Below, piece after piece: positions 14,050 to 23,191 of a DNA stretch of 64,000 nucleotides. Under the pieces are notes generated by a model. The model had not been told where the DNA came from and searched no databases. It worked only from the letters and a program-made list of their open reading frames with translations. The stretch lies in assembly GCF_053078305.1 (NCBI RefSeq), contig NZ_CP166879.1. One strand, written 5' to 3'. Made by a program: the position numbers and the translations under genes. How positions within the stretch are numbered: the first letter of the stretch is position 1; every line of letters starts with the position of its first letter.

Positions 14050-16311
14050 TCAATTCTCTTGCCCCAGCGCCTGCGCCAACTGCGCACGGGTAAAGGGTTT
14101 GCGCAACAGCGCCACGTCTGGCAGCGCGGGGTTATGGCTGGGGCGTAAATCCTGACCGCTGATGAGTAGCAGCGTCAGGTGCGGGTAAAGTTTGCGGGCC
14201 GCATTGACCACTTCTGCGCCGCTCATGCCGCCGGGGAGCATTAAATCGCTGATAAAAATATCGATTTCTGCTGATGCCGCCAGCAGATCCAGCGCCTGTT
14301 CGCCGCTGCTTGCTTCCAGCGTCAAATAGCCCAGCAGGTGCAACTGTTCGCAGATGGTCTGGCGCACCGCGGCTTCATCTTCCAGCACTAACACCAGTTT
14401 ATCGCCGCTGACAGAAGCCTGTTCTACTACCGCTGGCGATAGGTTTTTCGCCGCCGTCAGCGCGCGGGGAAGCTGTAATCTGACCGTTGTCCCCTGCCCC
14501 GGCGCGCTTTCAATTTCAACGCGCCCACCGGACTGGCGCACAAAACCATAGACCATCGACAAACCCAGCCCGCTGCCGCTGCCCGTCTGTTTGGTGGTAA
14601 AGAATGGCTCAAATACCTGGCTTTTCACCGCCTGCGACATGCCGCAGCCGTGATCGATGACTTCCAGCGCCACCATATCCTGTCGCTGCCCGCCGCTACG
14701 GGTAACGCGCTGATTCCAGGTACGAATTTTGATAATTCCCGTCTGCCCTTCCATCGCATCGCGGGCGTTCATCACCAGATTGATGATGGCATTTTCCAGC
14801 TGGCTGACATCAATCCACGCGGTCCATGCCGGAGACTGGGCTTCAATCTCCAGCGTCAGCGTCGCCGGTAAGGAGTGGCGCATTAATTCGCTTAACTCTT
14901 CCAGCAATGTTTTTAGTTCAACGGATTGCGGATGTAAGGACTGCTTACGGGAAAACGCCAGCAGTCGCTGGGTCAGTAGCGCGCCACGTTCGGCAGCTTG
15001 CTGCGCCCGCTGTATTCGCGGCGCGTCGGGTGAGTCCGTGTTCACCAGTTCCAGGCTGCCAATAATTACCGCCAACAGATTATTAAAATCATGGGCCAGC
15101 CCGCCCGTCAGTTGCCCAACCGCTTTCAGCTTCTGGCTGTGCAATAGCGCCTCTTCCAGCCCCTGCCGCTCGGTTTGGGCAATCTCCATCTGCATGGTTT
15201 TCTCTTTCAACAGCCGTGACGTTCGTTCGAGTGACGCGGTATTGCGGGCAAAAACGTTAAAGGCGCGCGCCAGTTCACCCAACTCATCACGCCGCTGTAA
15301 CGCCGGAAAGCTGACATCCGCTTCACCGTGCGCCAGGCGGCTCATGGCGCGGGAAATCGCCGTCAGGTTAGTGCCGAGGTTGCGATAGATATACCAGCCG
15401 GCAAACGCGGTGATCACCACCGCTAACAGGGCGAAAATCATGATCACCCTCTCGCCGGAGCGCAAATCCTGGTAACTTTGCGCCACACGCTGACCGGAGA
15501 GCGTCGCCACCTGTTCGGCGTAACGGTTGATGTCGCCATTGAGGATCGCCACCAGCGCTTTGATGTGAAACATATACCAGCTGATTGCCAGATCGCTTTG
15601 CTCCAGAGCGGCAGAAAGCGGCGCGAGTTTACGCATTTCATCATTGAAATCATTGAGTAACGTATTAACCAATGGCGTATCGCTGTGGGTCGGCAACGCA
15701 GACATTACCCCGACCAGTTGATGAATAATCGCCTGCGGCGCGGGGGTGGCAATAGCGGCAACAATCAGTCGGTTCATCTCGTTAAGCAAAATATCATCTT
15801 GCGCGTGAGTGACTTTTTGCAGATGCCGCAGATAACTTAAGTTTTGATACAGCGAACTTAACAGCGCGTTGCGCTCCAGATGCCGCCTTTGCCCGCGCTC
15901 CAGCATACCGCCGACGCTGGTTTGCAGTTCGTTGCTACGCGTGATGATGCGCGTCACCAGCCCGGCTTCCTGCTGCGCTAAAGGCGCGTTCGCCAGTTGT
16001 GCAAGCGAGCTTTTTAATGCACGCTGTGTCTCCTGCAACCGCTCGGCTTCGCCTTTATATTCCAGCGCTCCCACCACCTGCGACAATCGCACCGCCGCCG
16101 TTGCCACGTTTGCCGTGTCGCGCGCCAGATTCAGGCTGCCGGTCATATCATCCACCGTTTGCTGCTGCACCAGCTCCTGCATCTGGCTGGCATGACGAAA
16201 GCCCATTACCGCCACGCCGCTGACCATCAACGTCACCGCCACCACCAGCAAATTCAAAAGCAGCAAGCGCCCGCGCGCGCTGGCAAAAAAGTGACGTCCG
16301 GGGTGCGCCAT
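14050..16311 (-). CDS. Hybrid sensor histidine kinase (TM - periplasmic helical domain - TM - HAMP - HisKA - HATPase_c - receiver; no Hpt seen)
   Basis: ATG at 16309-16311 (MAHPGRHFF); two TM segments; H-box GGLAHDFNNLL; N-box NLVMNARDAM; G-boxes IDHGCGM and GSGLGLSMV; C-terminal REC with LVLEDE and ISDLMLPG. Confidence 0.85.
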   Translation of the reverse strand: MAHPGRHFFASARGRLLLLNLLVVAVTLMVSGVAVMGFRHASQMQELVQQQTVDDMTGSLNLARDTANVATAAVRLSQVVGALEYKGEAERLQETQRALKSSLAQLANAPLAQQEAGLVTRIITRSNELQTSVGGMLERGQRRHLERNALLSSLYQNLSYLRHLQKVTHAQDDILLNEMNRLIVAAIATPAPQAIIHQLVGVMSALPTHSDTPLVNTLLNDFNDEMRKLAPLSAALEQSDLAISWYMFHIKALVAILNGDINRYAEQVATLSGQRVAQSYQDLRSGERVIMIFALLAVVITAFAGWYIYRNLGTNLTAISRAMSRLAHGEADVSFPALQRRDELGELARAFNVFARNTASLERTSRLLKEKTMQMEIAQTERQGLEEALLHSQKLKAVGQLTGGLAHDFNNLLAVIIGSLELVNTDSPDAPRIQRAQQAAERGALLTQRLLAFSRKQSLHPQSVELKTLLEELSELMRHSLPATLTLEIEAQSPAWTAWIDVSQLENAIINLVMNARDAMEGQTGIIKIRTWNQRVTRSGGQRQDMVALEVIDHGCGMSQAVKSQVFEPFFTTKQTGSGSGLGLSMVYGFVRQSGGRVEIESAPGQGTTVRLQLPRALTAAKNLSPAVVEQASVSGDKLVLVLEDEAAVRQTICEQLHLLGYLTLEASSGEQALDLLAASAEIDIFISDLMLPGGMSGAEVVNAARKLYPHLTLLLISGQDLRPSHNPALPDVALLRKPFTRAQLAQALGQEN

Positions 16312-16424
16312 ATCACGCTCCGTGAAGAAAAATCGCAATATGACAAATATGAACGGCTTCTGACATTTTGCATTTACTTTCCTGTGATGGAGTGCTGATA
16401 TCGCCAACCTCGCAGGAGTCCACC
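16312..16424. promoter_or_regulatory. Divergent control region between the sensor kinase and the ABC/catabolic operon
   Basis: 113 bp gap between divergent starts; direct repeats TGACAAATATGAA (16341) and TGACATTTTGCAT (16361) spaced 20 bp; SD AGGAGT at 16414. Confidence 0.4.
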
Positions 16425-21489: not shown

Positions 21490-22487
21490 TGGAGCGTAAA
21501 GGGATTATCGCCGCAGGCAATATGTTGGTTGACCACGTCCATCAGATTATCCAGTGGCCAGAGCGCGGCTGGCTGGCGGAGATCACCCACAGCGAACGCT
21601 CCACCGGCGGTGCGCCGCTTAACGTCCTGCTGACGCTGGCGAAAATGCGCACCGGGCTGCCGTTACAGGCGGTTGGGCTAATCGGTCAGGACAGCGACGG
21701 CGATTACATCATGGCGATGCTTGAGCAATATCACGTCAATCGTCAGCATGTGCAGCGCACTACCTTTGCCCCGACGTCGATGTCGCAGGTGATGACAGAC
21801 CCAAGCGGGCAGCGGACGTTTTTCCATTCGCCGGGTGCAAACAGACTTTTGGATCTTCCGGCGTTCGATCAGCTCGATAACACCATGAAGATTTTCCATC
21901 TCGGCTATTTACTGTTGCTCGACAGCCTGGATATGCCGGACGATGTTTACGGCACCCGTAGCGCACGCCTGCTGGCGCAAATGCGTGATACTGGCTTTGA
22001 AACCTCACTCGACCTGGTCTCCCGTAAGGGCGATCCGCGTTATCAGCCGCTGGTGCTGCCCGCGTTGCGCCATCTGGATTATCTGGTAATTAACGAACTG
22101 GAGGCCGGGGAGTTTAGCGGGCTGGAAATTCGGTTACCCAACGGCGAACCGCATATCGCGCATATTGCTGCCGCCGCGCGTGAACTGTTAGATGCGGGCG
22201 TGCGCCAGCGGGTGGTGATCCACTGCCCGGAAGGGGCGTGGGGAGAGACCCCAGAACAGGGCGGCGTGTGGATCCCTTCGCAAAAGTTAGAACAACGGGA
22301 AATTATCGGCAGCGTCGGCGCGGGCGATGCATTTTGTGCCGGATTTTTATATGGCTGCCATGAACGCTGGACGCTTACCGAGAGCATCAAACTGGCACAC
22401 GCCTGCGCGCGGGCAAGCCTGTTATGCGCCAATGCCATCGACGGGGCGAAAACGCTGGAAGAGCTGCAAACAGAAATGTCGGATTAA
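21486..22487 (+). CDS. PfkB-family carbohydrate kinase
   Basis: 333 aa; GG dipeptide (STGGAP) and C-terminal PfkB signature GSVGAGDAFCAGF; start overlaps aldolase stop (ATGA). Confidence 0.8.
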   Translation: MMERKGIIAAGNMLVDHVHQIIQWPERGWLAEITHSERSTGGAPLNVLLTLAKMRTGLPLQAVGLIGQDSDGDYIMAMLEQYHVNRQHVQRTTFAPTSMSQVMTDPSGQRTFFHSPGANRLLDLPAFDQLDNTMKIFHLGYLLLLDSLDMPDDVYGTRSARLLAQMRDTGFETSLDLVSRKGDPRYQPLVLPALRHLDYLVINELEAGEFSGLEIRLPNGEPHIAHIAAAARELLDAGVRQRVVIHCPEGAWGETPEQGGVWIPSQKLEQREIIGSVGAGDAFCAGFLYGCHERWTLTESIKLAHACARASLLCANAIDGAKTLEELQTEMSD

Positions 22488-23191
22488 TGCACGTCGGCAG
22501 CGAAGACATACCCCAGACCGCGCAGAGTTTTAATCAACATCGGCTGATGCGGGTTGAGTTCGATTTTGCGTCGTAAGCGCATGATTAATACGTCGATGGT
22601 GCGATCAAACACCTCCACGCTGTCGCTGTGGGTGAACGCCAGCAACTGCTCGCGGCTCAATACCCGACGCGCGTTTTGCGCCAGAGCCAGTAACAAGCCA
22701 TATTCGCCCTGAGTTAACTCGACATGTTGCTGAAGCGGATTGTGCAACTGGCAGCGCATGGTATCGAGATACCAGCCATTGAATGACAGCCCGGCGCTTT
22801 TCTCGTCATTAACCGCCAGCGCACCAACCCGTCGCAACACCGCTTTCAGTCGTGCGACCACCACCCGCGGGGTGAACGGTTTGCAGATGTAATCATCCGC
22901 GCCCATTTCCAGCCCGACCACCACATCAGACTCACTGCCCATGCCGGTCAACATCACCACCGGCAATGTCGGACGCAGTTTCTGGATTTGCTGCAATACC
23001 CTCAGGCCGTTGGTATCGGGTAGCATCATATCCAGCACCACCAGCGCAATGTCAGGATCGCCCTCAATACGCAATATGGCCTCCTGTCCGGTATGGCAGA
23101 CTGAAACCGTAAAGACATGTTCACTTAACACGTCCTGCAACAGTGCGCAGATAGCCGTGTCATCATCCACCACCAGCACGACGGGTTTCAT
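22484..23191 (-). CDS. OmpR/PhoB-family response regulator (REC plus winged-helix DNA-binding domain)
   Basis: ATG at 23189-23191 with GGAG 9 nt upstream (alternative ATGs at 23204-23209); VLVVDDD, LDMMLPD, C-terminal LRGLGYVF winged helix. Confidence 0.85.
   Translation of the reverse strand: MKPVVLVVDDDTAICALLQDVLSEHVFTVSVCHTGQEAILRIEGDPDIALVVLDMMLPDTNGLRVLQQIQKLRPTLPVVMLTGMGSESDVVVGLEMGADDYICKPFTPRVVVARLKAVLRRVGALAVNDEKSAGLSFNGWYLDTMRCQLHNPLQQHVELTQGEYGLLLALAQNARRVLSREQLLAFTHSDSVEVFDRTIDVLIMRLRRKIELNPHQPMLIKTLRGLGYVFAADVH

Follow-up and report, generated by a model that had tools for sequence, protein, structure and literature searches.

The lmvK-lmuXYZIAK-lmvR locus between yjdP and yjcS: a published sugar-responsive two-component system and its relatives in the Enterobacteriaceae

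In Escherichia coli O157:H7, O-island 167 (OI-167) encodes a two-component system that has been described under two names. Liu et al. placed Z5684 and Z5692 in this island and termed them RbfR and RbfS, respectively (PNAS 2022; PMC9860305). Yang et al. renamed the pair LmvR/LmvK and designated the six genes between them lmuKAIZYX (mBio 2023; PMC10128022); a 2024 review refers to this paper (PMC11644481). Here, we analyse the eight genes at positions 14050-23191 of a 64-kb stretch of DNA (contig NZ_CP166879.1, assembly GCF_053078305.1), hereafter the window, to which all coordinates refer. They very probably encode the LmvK/LmvR (= RbfS/RbfR) two-component system and comprise the lmuXYZIAK operon under its control, and they are named after their O157:H7 counterparts. 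This means, the locus is already published and not an under-described system: A solved enzyme structure and two mechanistic papers exist.

LmvK autophosphorylates and passes the phosphate to LmvR in vitro (PMC9860305), and both LmvK His410 and LmvR Asp54 are required (PMC10128022). D-lyxose and D-mannose each induce lmvR and the lmu genes, and induction by mannose depends on LmvK and LmvR (PMC10128022). The lmuX transcription start site was mapped by 5' RACE (rapid amplification of cDNA ends). At the lmuX promoter, LmvR causes a shift in electrophoretic mobility shift assays and protects the region from -41 to -62 against DNase I, which includes the direct repeat ATATGA-N3-ATATGA (PMC10128022). 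Upon LmvR overexpression, lmuX increases 694-fold, other targets supported by chromatin immunoprecipitation (ChIP) only 2-3-fold, among them ler with 2.4-fold. In addition, lmvR is reported to be autoregulated, and the same study comprises ChIP-seq, RNA-seq and infection models (PMC10128022). The proposed signals differ, riboflavin in one paper (PMC9860305) vs mannose in the other (PMC10128022). Both report a direct, modest activation of ler and the locus of enterocyte effacement (LEE) as well as colonisation defects of regulator mutants (PMC9860305, PMC10128022).

The locus analysed here is composed of the following features:

14050..16311, minus strand: lmvK / rbfS (Z5692 orthologue), hybrid sensor histidine kinase, 753 aa (open reading frame, Pfam)
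16312..16424, no strand: divergent lmvK/lmuX control region, 113 bp (sequence; the published transcription start site, -10/-35 elements and LmvR footprint fall here, PMC10128022)
16338..16352, plus strand: LmvR binding site, direct repeat ATATGA-N3-ATATGA (ATATGACAAATATGA) (window scan, published footprint)
16360..16378, plus strand: further near-invariant block TCTGACATTTTGCATTTAC, immediately 3' of the LmvR box (phylogenetic footprint)
16425..17945, plus strand: lmuX (Z5691 orthologue), ATPase of a CUT2-type sugar ABC (ATP-binding cassette) transporter, 506 aa, two ABC domains
17942..18916, plus strand: lmuY, ABC permease (BPD_transp_2), 324 aa
18935..19876, plus strand: lmuZ, periplasmic sugar-binding protein (Peripla_BP_4, RbsB-like), 313 aa, with signal peptide
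19931..20614, plus strand: lmuI (Z5688 orthologue), cupin D-lyxose/D-mannose isomerase, 227 aa
20629..21489, plus strand: lmuA, class II (TIM-barrel, metal-dependent) ketose-bisphosphate aldolase, 286 aa
21486..22487, plus strand: lmuK, PfkB-family carbohydrate kinase, 333 aa
22484..23191, minus strand: lmvR / rbfR (Z5684 orthologue), OmpR/PhoB-family response regulator, 235 aa
23192..23469, no strand: divergent lmvR/yjcS intergenic region, AT-rich (about 41% GC), holds the lmvR promoter

Identity with the published locus is carried by all eight genes. Protein identities were computed against O157:H7 strain TB21-1 as a stand-in for EDL933 and amount to 98.1% for lmvK, 99.6% for lmuX, 99.4% for lmuY, 100% for lmuZ, 99.1% for lmuI, 99.7% each for lmuA and lmuK and 100% for lmvR. 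At the DNA level, 99.0% identity to O157:H7 was found over 9.1 kb, with the same gene order, orientation and yjdP/yjcS flanks. OI-167 of EDL933 itself (Z5684-Z5692 / EDL933_5428-5436) agrees in all eight genes, in their order and orientation and in the LmvR box, which is identical. The differences from the O157:H7 locus are allelic only, and lmvK is the most divergent gene (97.1% DNA identity). Its start is read at an ATG that yields 753 aa, vs 756 aa annotated in RefSeq for O157:H7. A longer lmvK frame (14050-16488), the longest possible reading, was rejected, as it runs through the promoter; the real ATG is located at 16311.

The first-pass annotation of this DNA, made from the letters alone, had regarded the locus as the best candidate in the window for an under-described system. 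Since the proteins are 98.1-100% identical to those of a characterised operon, this view had to be abandoned. The same applies to its claim that the logic of regulation, transport and catabolism has yet to be established, because experiments cover the first two and most of the third (PMC9860305, PMC10128022). By contrast, its structural description held. ORF map, translations and junction sequences revealed eight intact open reading frames (ORFs) in the order it had given, and Pfam and NCBIfam labels agree with the assigned functions, including a REC and a Trans_reg_C domain in LmvR. ATGA overlaps connect lmuX with lmuY and lmuA with lmuK, and the other gaps measure 18, 54 and 14 bp; the single transcript predicted from this spacing corresponds to the six-gene operon detected by RT-PCR in O157:H7 (PMC10128022). 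lmuK and lmvR are convergent and overlap by 4 bp. The locus is flanked by yjdP (13652-13981) and yjcS (23470-25467). At this site, K-12 MG1655 carries yjcS-alsKECAB-alsR-rpiB-yjdP instead of the lmv/lmu module, in agreement with the annotation. It had also noted borders devoid of transposase, integrase and tRNA genes: No tRNA is present within 9000-28000, and the annotation of the O157:H7 counterpart contains no mobility gene. Finally, its assignment of the cupin as a D-lyxose/D-mannose isomerase of the Z5688 type was borne out by NCBIfam and by the structures PDB 3KMH/3MPB (see below).

The regulatory site can be recognised independently of the published experiments. ATATGA-N3-ATATGA has a single perfect match in the 64-kb window, at 16338-16352. 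Comparison of 76 distinct promoter sequences from many genera uncovered a conserved element that coincides with the published footprint: TATGACAAATATGAAC shows at least 95% column conservation, and together with the following CTGACATTTTGCATTTAC it is 90-100% conserved and keeps a fixed distance to the lmuX start codon. The lmvK-lmuX spacers, 111-1262 bp long, are otherwise unalignable and broken up by palindromes resembling repetitive extragenic palindromic (REP) sequences. Block TCTGACATTTTGCATTTAC at 16360-16378 displays 90-100% column conservation, too. It probably contains the -35 element CTGACA, judged by its position and the TTGACA consensus. No second LmvR box with up to 2-3 mismatches was found in the lmvR-yjcS spacer (23192-23469), and the other matches in the window are at chance level.

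Further upstream, the promoters vary. Outside Escherichia and Citrobacter (loci L024-L092), a conserved TGTGATC-N4-TTAACTATTCA is located just upstream of the LmvR box and could be a CRP-type half site. In the same loci, this element is separated from lmvK by REP-like palindromes that vary (CCCTCTCCC...GGGAGAGGG). The corresponding stretch in E. coli and Citrobacter measures only 26 bp (16312-16337 in the window) and contains neither the CRP-like element nor the REP-like palindromes.

The distribution of the module was studied in two ways. A megablast search with the 9.1-kb block against 5,426 complete E. coli genomes detected it in 410, always as a single chromosomal copy. Most of these are O157:H7, O145:H28 and O55:H7 strains, but avian, porcine (ETEC6335), mink, frog, goat and human non-O157 isolates are carriers as well. 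In diverse E. coli, Shigella boydii, E. ruysiae, E. marmotae and further Escherichia sp., the kinase is 95-99% identical, in Citrobacter about 82%. In addition, one genome per bacterial species was scanned with an alignment of the LmvK sensor domain, which yielded 151 matching genomes; all linkage counts refer to the best 80 of these 151. They include Citrobacter, Enterobacter, Leclercia, Silvania, Kosakonia, Lelliottia, Raoultella, Phytobacter, Pseudescherichia, Franconibacter, Huaxiibacter, Buttiauxella, Cedecea, Dryocola and Atlantibacter. Even so, the sensor domain forms a narrow family, with only 87 matches among 1.84 billion representative proteins. Both papers called the locus horizontally acquired and essentially restricted to EHEC (enterohaemorrhagic E. 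coli) and O55:H7 (PMC9860305, PMC10128022). The module is not EHEC-specific.

The linkage of kinase and transporter is invariant. In all 74 loci whose sequence reaches upstream of the kinase gene, an ABC transporter is divergently adjacent to it; the other 6 of the 80 end short. A full module is present in 51/80 loci, whereas 7/80 (Raoultella and others) have kinase, transporter and regulator without catabolic genes; of the latter, 4/80 (Cedecea) keep only the isomerase and 2/80 isomerase and sugar kinase. A relative with 57% sensor identity still has a complete module. In another one with 40%, an FGGY kinase and an isomerase fragment are encoded behind the transporter. Since kinase, transporter, regulator and LmvR box are kept together at one site across genera, the native and ancient role of the system would be the sugar-responsive control of its own transporter.

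How the sugar signal is perceived was approached by fold prediction. LmvK comprises a transmembrane segment, a periplasmic all-helical sensor of about 250 aa, a second transmembrane segment and the Pfam domains HAMP, HisKA, HATPase_c and REC. Neither an HPt nor a PAS domain was found by Pfam, and the protein ends at REC. The periplasmic region has no Pfam match and no sequence match in the PDB (profile search, best E about 1). An AlphaFold model of aa 1-313, based on a 24-sequence alignment, is all-helical and confident, with a pLDDT (predicted local distance difference test) of 85.9. The top Foldseek match is the TorS sensor 3I9Y (TM score 0.71 normalised to target, root-mean-square deviation 4.4 A, probability 1.00, E 1.3e-3). 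The HBM domains of PilJ and McpS come next, and the TorS-TorT complexes 3O1H/I/J are among the top ten, at E-values that are marginal (about 1e-3). For the periplasmic LmvK sensor, a TorS-like stacked helical-bundle fold is predicted.

The comparison with the Tor system of E. coli and Vibrio extends beyond the fold. In both cases, a hybrid kinase with a (for LmvK, predicted) stacked helical-bundle sensor is combined with an OmpR-family regulator acting on direct repeats and with a ribose-binding-protein-like periplasmic protein encoded alongside, here LmuZ. The right half of the LmvR box, ATATGAAC(A/G)G, agrees with the tor box of TorR, CTGTTCATAT, read as its reverse complement, at 9-10 of 10 positions. 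Cross-regulation by TorR through ATATGAAC was considered and discarded: LmvR lies far below the TorR cut-off (163.2 vs 275 bits), and the 9 bp between the half-site starts equal the spacing of the published LmvR site. Unlike TorS, LmvK lacks a C-terminal HPt, its sensor has no sequence-level similarity to that of TorS, and it attains 141.6 vs a TorS cut-off of 676.5 bits. LmuZ, unlike TorT, is a component of an ABC importer, and the system responds to a sugar and controls a sugar operon instead of a reductase.

Kinases that depend on a solute-binding protein are a documented class comprising TorT-TorS, ChvE-VirA, LuxP-LuxQ and XylFII-LytS (PMC8050422). Similar to ChvE-VirA/VirG of Agrobacterium and XylFII-LytS/YesN of Clostridium, the locus has a CUT2/Peripla_BP_4 binding protein beside a kinase that controls sugar genes, and the best NCBIfam matches include VirA-like and VirG models. 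The sensor folds differ, as VirA is dCache-like and LytS TarH-like, unlike LmvK. ChvE serves both transport and signalling, and by analogy the same is proposed for LmuZ. The predicted TorS-like fold, the known class of binding-protein-dependent kinases and the invariant lmuZ linkage make co-sensing through LmuZ a reasonable hypothesis. LmvK would then read the sugar via sugar-loaded LmuZ as TorS reads trimethylamine N-oxide via TorT, to which we assign almost an even chance. The high conservation of LmuZ (92-100% identity across the fetched loci, above that of the ATPase) was considered as a sign of a signalling role, too, but was dismissed, because AlsB and AlsC are similarly conserved in the same genera.

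Several points weigh against co-sensing and the sugar-centred reading as a whole. The model fits domains of the HBM/PilJ type, in which small ligands are bound directly (McpS, 2YFA), almost as closely as it fits TorS, and LmuZ serves in a functional transporter, whereas TorT and LuxP are dedicated sensors. Riboflavin, which is no sugar, stimulates the kinase in vitro (PMC9860305), and deletion of lmvK left mannose-induced LEE expression unchanged (PMC10128022). Furthermore, LmvK is a hybrid kinase without HPt, and at no locus does the module contain an HPt gene; the published model draws the phosphotransfer 'via an unknown Hpt' (PMC10128022). On the metabolic side, a mannose growth phenotype was only seen in a manA mutant that overexpresses LmvR (PMC10128022), and the Km of LmuI for mannose is unfavourable (19.8 mM), so that mannose may not be its physiological substrate.

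The alternative that survives best is the model of the mBio paper. It assumes that LmvK binds D-mannose or D-lyxose directly via its helical-bundle domain, like HBM chemoreceptors, and that LmuZ is solely engaged in transport. The near-equal match of the model to the ligand-binding domains of McpS (2YFA/2YFB) and PilJ agrees with it, and so does the lower lmu expression of the lmvK deletion strain on mannose (PMC10128022). Moreover, no published evidence indicates that signalling requires LmuZ. However, the best structural match, TorS, works via a ribose-binding-protein-like partner, and wherever sequence is available, the kinase gene never occurs apart from the binding-protein gene. The known ligands of HBM domains are small acids rather than neutral sugars. 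A weaker counterargument is the divergence of the sensor domain (about 60-80% identity) at a presumably constant ligand range. Taken together, we consider direct sensing a serious but rather doubtful possibility.

Returning to co-sensing, the following course of events is proposed. D-lyxose or D-mannose outside the cell would be presented by loaded LmuZ to the TorS-like sensor of LmvK, rather than being bound by the sensor itself, and the phosphate would pass from LmvK (His410) to LmvR (Asp54). LmvR at ATATGA-N3-ATATGA (-41 to -62) would then activate the single six-gene transcript from the lmuX promoter. LmuXYZ would import the sugar, as shown genetically in O157:H7, and LmuI would isomerise it to D-xylulose or D-fructose, for which biochemical and structural data exist; fructose would be phosphorylated by LmuK. 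D-xylulose may enter metabolism through a xylulokinase of the host or, in some variants, a linked FGGY xylulokinase, as the variation in gene content suggests. In LEE-positive strains, LmvR would in addition modestly raise ler/LEE expression, most likely a lineage-specific co-option given the distribution of the module. Our combined view, that LmvK itself binds neither sugar nor riboflavin but is contacted by loaded LmuZ in a three-component system, that the locus is an ancient, vertically inherited lyxose/mannose regulon mostly lost in E. coli and that its action on the LEE is a recent weak co-option, is tentative and held at somewhat less than even chance.

The transport and catabolic genes are consistent with such a pathway. 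A complete CUT2 importer set is encoded together: a fused two-domain ATPase, a BPD_transp_2 permease and a Peripla_BP_1/4 binding protein. LmuX matches AraG best (557 bits, below the cut-off of 689), LmuY RbsC (271 vs 398) and LmuZ RbsB (150 vs 337). Hence, in NCBIfam, no match exceeds the equivalog cut-off of any transporter with known specificity. LmuZ is near-identical to PDB 4RWE ('sugar-binding transport protein', E = 3.7e-167); in our reading, neither PMC9860305 nor PMC10128022 mentions this entry. LmuI exceeds the cut-off of the NCBIfam equivalog NF051472 (438.4 vs 350 bits) and matches the crystallised and assayed Z5688 (PDB 3KMH/3MPB) over residues 1-227 with E = 4e-160. Pfam detects Lyx_isomer (PF07385) in the lmuI orthologues, and the O157:H7 enzyme converts D-lyxose to D-xylulose and D-mannose to D-fructose. 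LmuA scores 578 bits vs a cut-off of 406 with NF005284 and contains the Pfam domain F_bP_aldolase; its nearest PDB relatives are class II FBP (fructose-1,6-bisphosphate) aldolases, KbaY and YdjI. For LmuK, a fructokinase activity was reported (PMC10128022), and it has only distant PDB relatives (E about 1e-10).

Growth on D-lyxose is impaired by deletion of lmvK, lmvR, lmuI or lmuZYX, while lmuK and lmuA are dispensable (PMC10128022). This fits the conserved core, which consists of sensor, transporter, regulator and usually isomerase. If D-xylulose is processed by a xylulokinase of the host or by a linked FGGY xylulokinase, lmuA and lmuK would not be needed, in accordance with their dispensability and variable presence. 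Induction by lyxose and mannose and the growth dependence were reported for EDL933 only (PMC10128022). Z5688 was also found among the hypothetical genes most induced in LB at 15 degrees C (90 reads vs 2 in the reference condition, EDL933 transcriptomes; PMC4048457), an observation that neither the lyxose/mannose nor the riboflavin account explains.

Both papers regard the module as a genomic island which the EHEC lineage obtained by horizontal transfer and which took the place of the als operon there (PMC9860305, PMC10128022). Its presence in just 410 of 5426 complete E. coli genomes and its GC content (56.3% vs 53.1% in the rest of the window) agree with this account. Base composition, however, is weak evidence for horizontal transfer, as the neighbouring native phn genes are even richer in GC (about 60%). 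The island is also more similar between the window strain and O157:H7 (99.0%; lmuX-lmvR 99.6-99.9%) than its flanks (95.8-98.1%), which suggests recombinational allele exchange within E. coli. Against acquisition speak the borders, which lack mobility genes, tRNA genes and repeats, the presence of the module in E. ruysiae, E. marmotae, other Escherichia sp. and Shigella boydii, and the similar divergence of island and flanks towards cryptic Escherichia and Citrobacter.

Above all, the chromosomal site is conserved. In the species loci from other Enterobacteriaceae, phnP/yjdP is found on the kinase side in 57/80 cases and fdhF on the regulator side in 43/80. The phn-fdhF site holds the module in Citrobacter, Enterobacter, Leclercia, Kosakonia, Raoultella, Cedecea and others. 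In 17/80 loci and in C. freundii, the als operon is arranged in tandem with the module; the C. freundii order is phnMNOP-yjdP-rpiB-rpiR-alsBACEK-lmvK-lmuXYZIAK-lmvR-fdhF. This conservation across the family indicates that the module is ancestral at this site and that als and lmv/lmu are neighbours, not alternatives. The simplest history would be an ancestral als-lmv/lmu tandem followed by differential loss, plus allele exchange within E. coli. Acquisition in the EHEC lineage with replacement of als is accordingly rated as unlikely, and the comparative results correct the published account of an EHEC-specific, horizontally acquired, als-replacing origin.

The two neighbours are related in design. 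AlsR-alsBACEK/rpiB (D-allose in K-12) occupies the same yjdP-yjcS interval and also combines a CUT2 ABC importer with enzymes for a rare aldose. Unlike lmv/lmu, it uses an RpiR-family repressor and a pathway of kinase, epimerase and isomerase. The transporter proteins of both share only about 40% identity, and the clusters coexist in tandem in many genera. In E. coli, the interval occurs in at least three states: with the full als operon, with only a truncated rpiB remnant or with the lmv/lmu module. For these states, strain 19SZHZ886Rt (L002), K-12 (L093) and positions 13982-14049 of the window were compared. Among the inspected E. coli loci L001, L007 and L008, no als-lmv/lmu tandem was found.

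Least well does the view survive that riboflavin sensing is the primary function of the system (RbfSR) and that EHEC acquired it for turning on LEE-encoded type III secretion in the colon, with the sugar genes being incidental. The experiments behind it are substantial: 20 uM riboflavin raises rbfS/rbfR and LEE transcripts, riboflavin boosts RbfS autophosphorylation in vitro, and RbfR~P footprints on the ler promoter. In rbfS/rbfR mutants, riboflavin-induced LEE expression and adherence are lost, and transfer of rbfSR into C. rodentium increases virulence (PMC9860305). Yet, lmuX is by far the strongest LmvR target (see above), and the proposed ler sites differ, TCTCACATAATTTATATCATT (PMC9860305) vs ATTTTA-N3-ATTAGA (PMC10128022), with neither closely resembling the conserved box. 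At least 151 species genomes have kept kinase, regulator, transporter and LmvR box together, across genera that are not known to carry the LEE, and the claimed restriction to EHEC and O55:H7 fails on the genome distribution.

The domain composition of the kinase bears on the same question, as the E. coli kinase contains neither a PAS nor another flavin-binding domain recognisable by Pfam. A PAS domain of about 100 aa is located between HAMP and DHp in the kinases of Kosakonia, Raoultella, Buttiauxella and Cedecea and in those of distant relatives (about 870 aa; e.g. loci L009, L010, L030, L054, L087), whereas the kinases of Escherichia, Citrobacter, Enterobacter and Leclercia (about 750 aa) have no cytoplasmic PAS. 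It is excised cleanly, with residues 376/377 of the E. coli kinase matching residues 379 and 479 in the longer orthologue P0122. Thus, no recognisable cofactor-binding module is left in the E. coli kinase to account for the riboflavin response. All in all, a primary function in riboflavin sensing appears very unlikely. The ancestral role indicated by the comparison, sugar-responsive control of the own transporter in many mostly non-pathogenic Enterobacteriaceae, bears on how the reported riboflavin and LEE effects are to be read.

A few observations concern individual strains and the surroundings of the locus. The phnM-phnP flank of the window (10741-13615) is about 95.6% identical to both K-12 and O157:H7, compared to 99.0% identity of the island to O157:H7. 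Either the strain belongs to a divergent lineage that may have obtained an O157-like island allele by recombination, or phn may be unusually diverse. In strains XJ5.2 (L008) and R32_14_1F (L007), the module is decaying: One of them has a frameshifted kinase gene and an internal stop in the permease gene, the other a deletion by which the genes for aldolase and kinase are fused. Most of the adjacent phn operon is missing from both strains as well. The flanking gene yjdP (13652-13981) encodes a small secreted protein that consists mostly of DDRRRQL-type repeats. In many genera it adjoins the lmv/lmu module or als, and its identity of just 54-64% is far below that of its neighbours.

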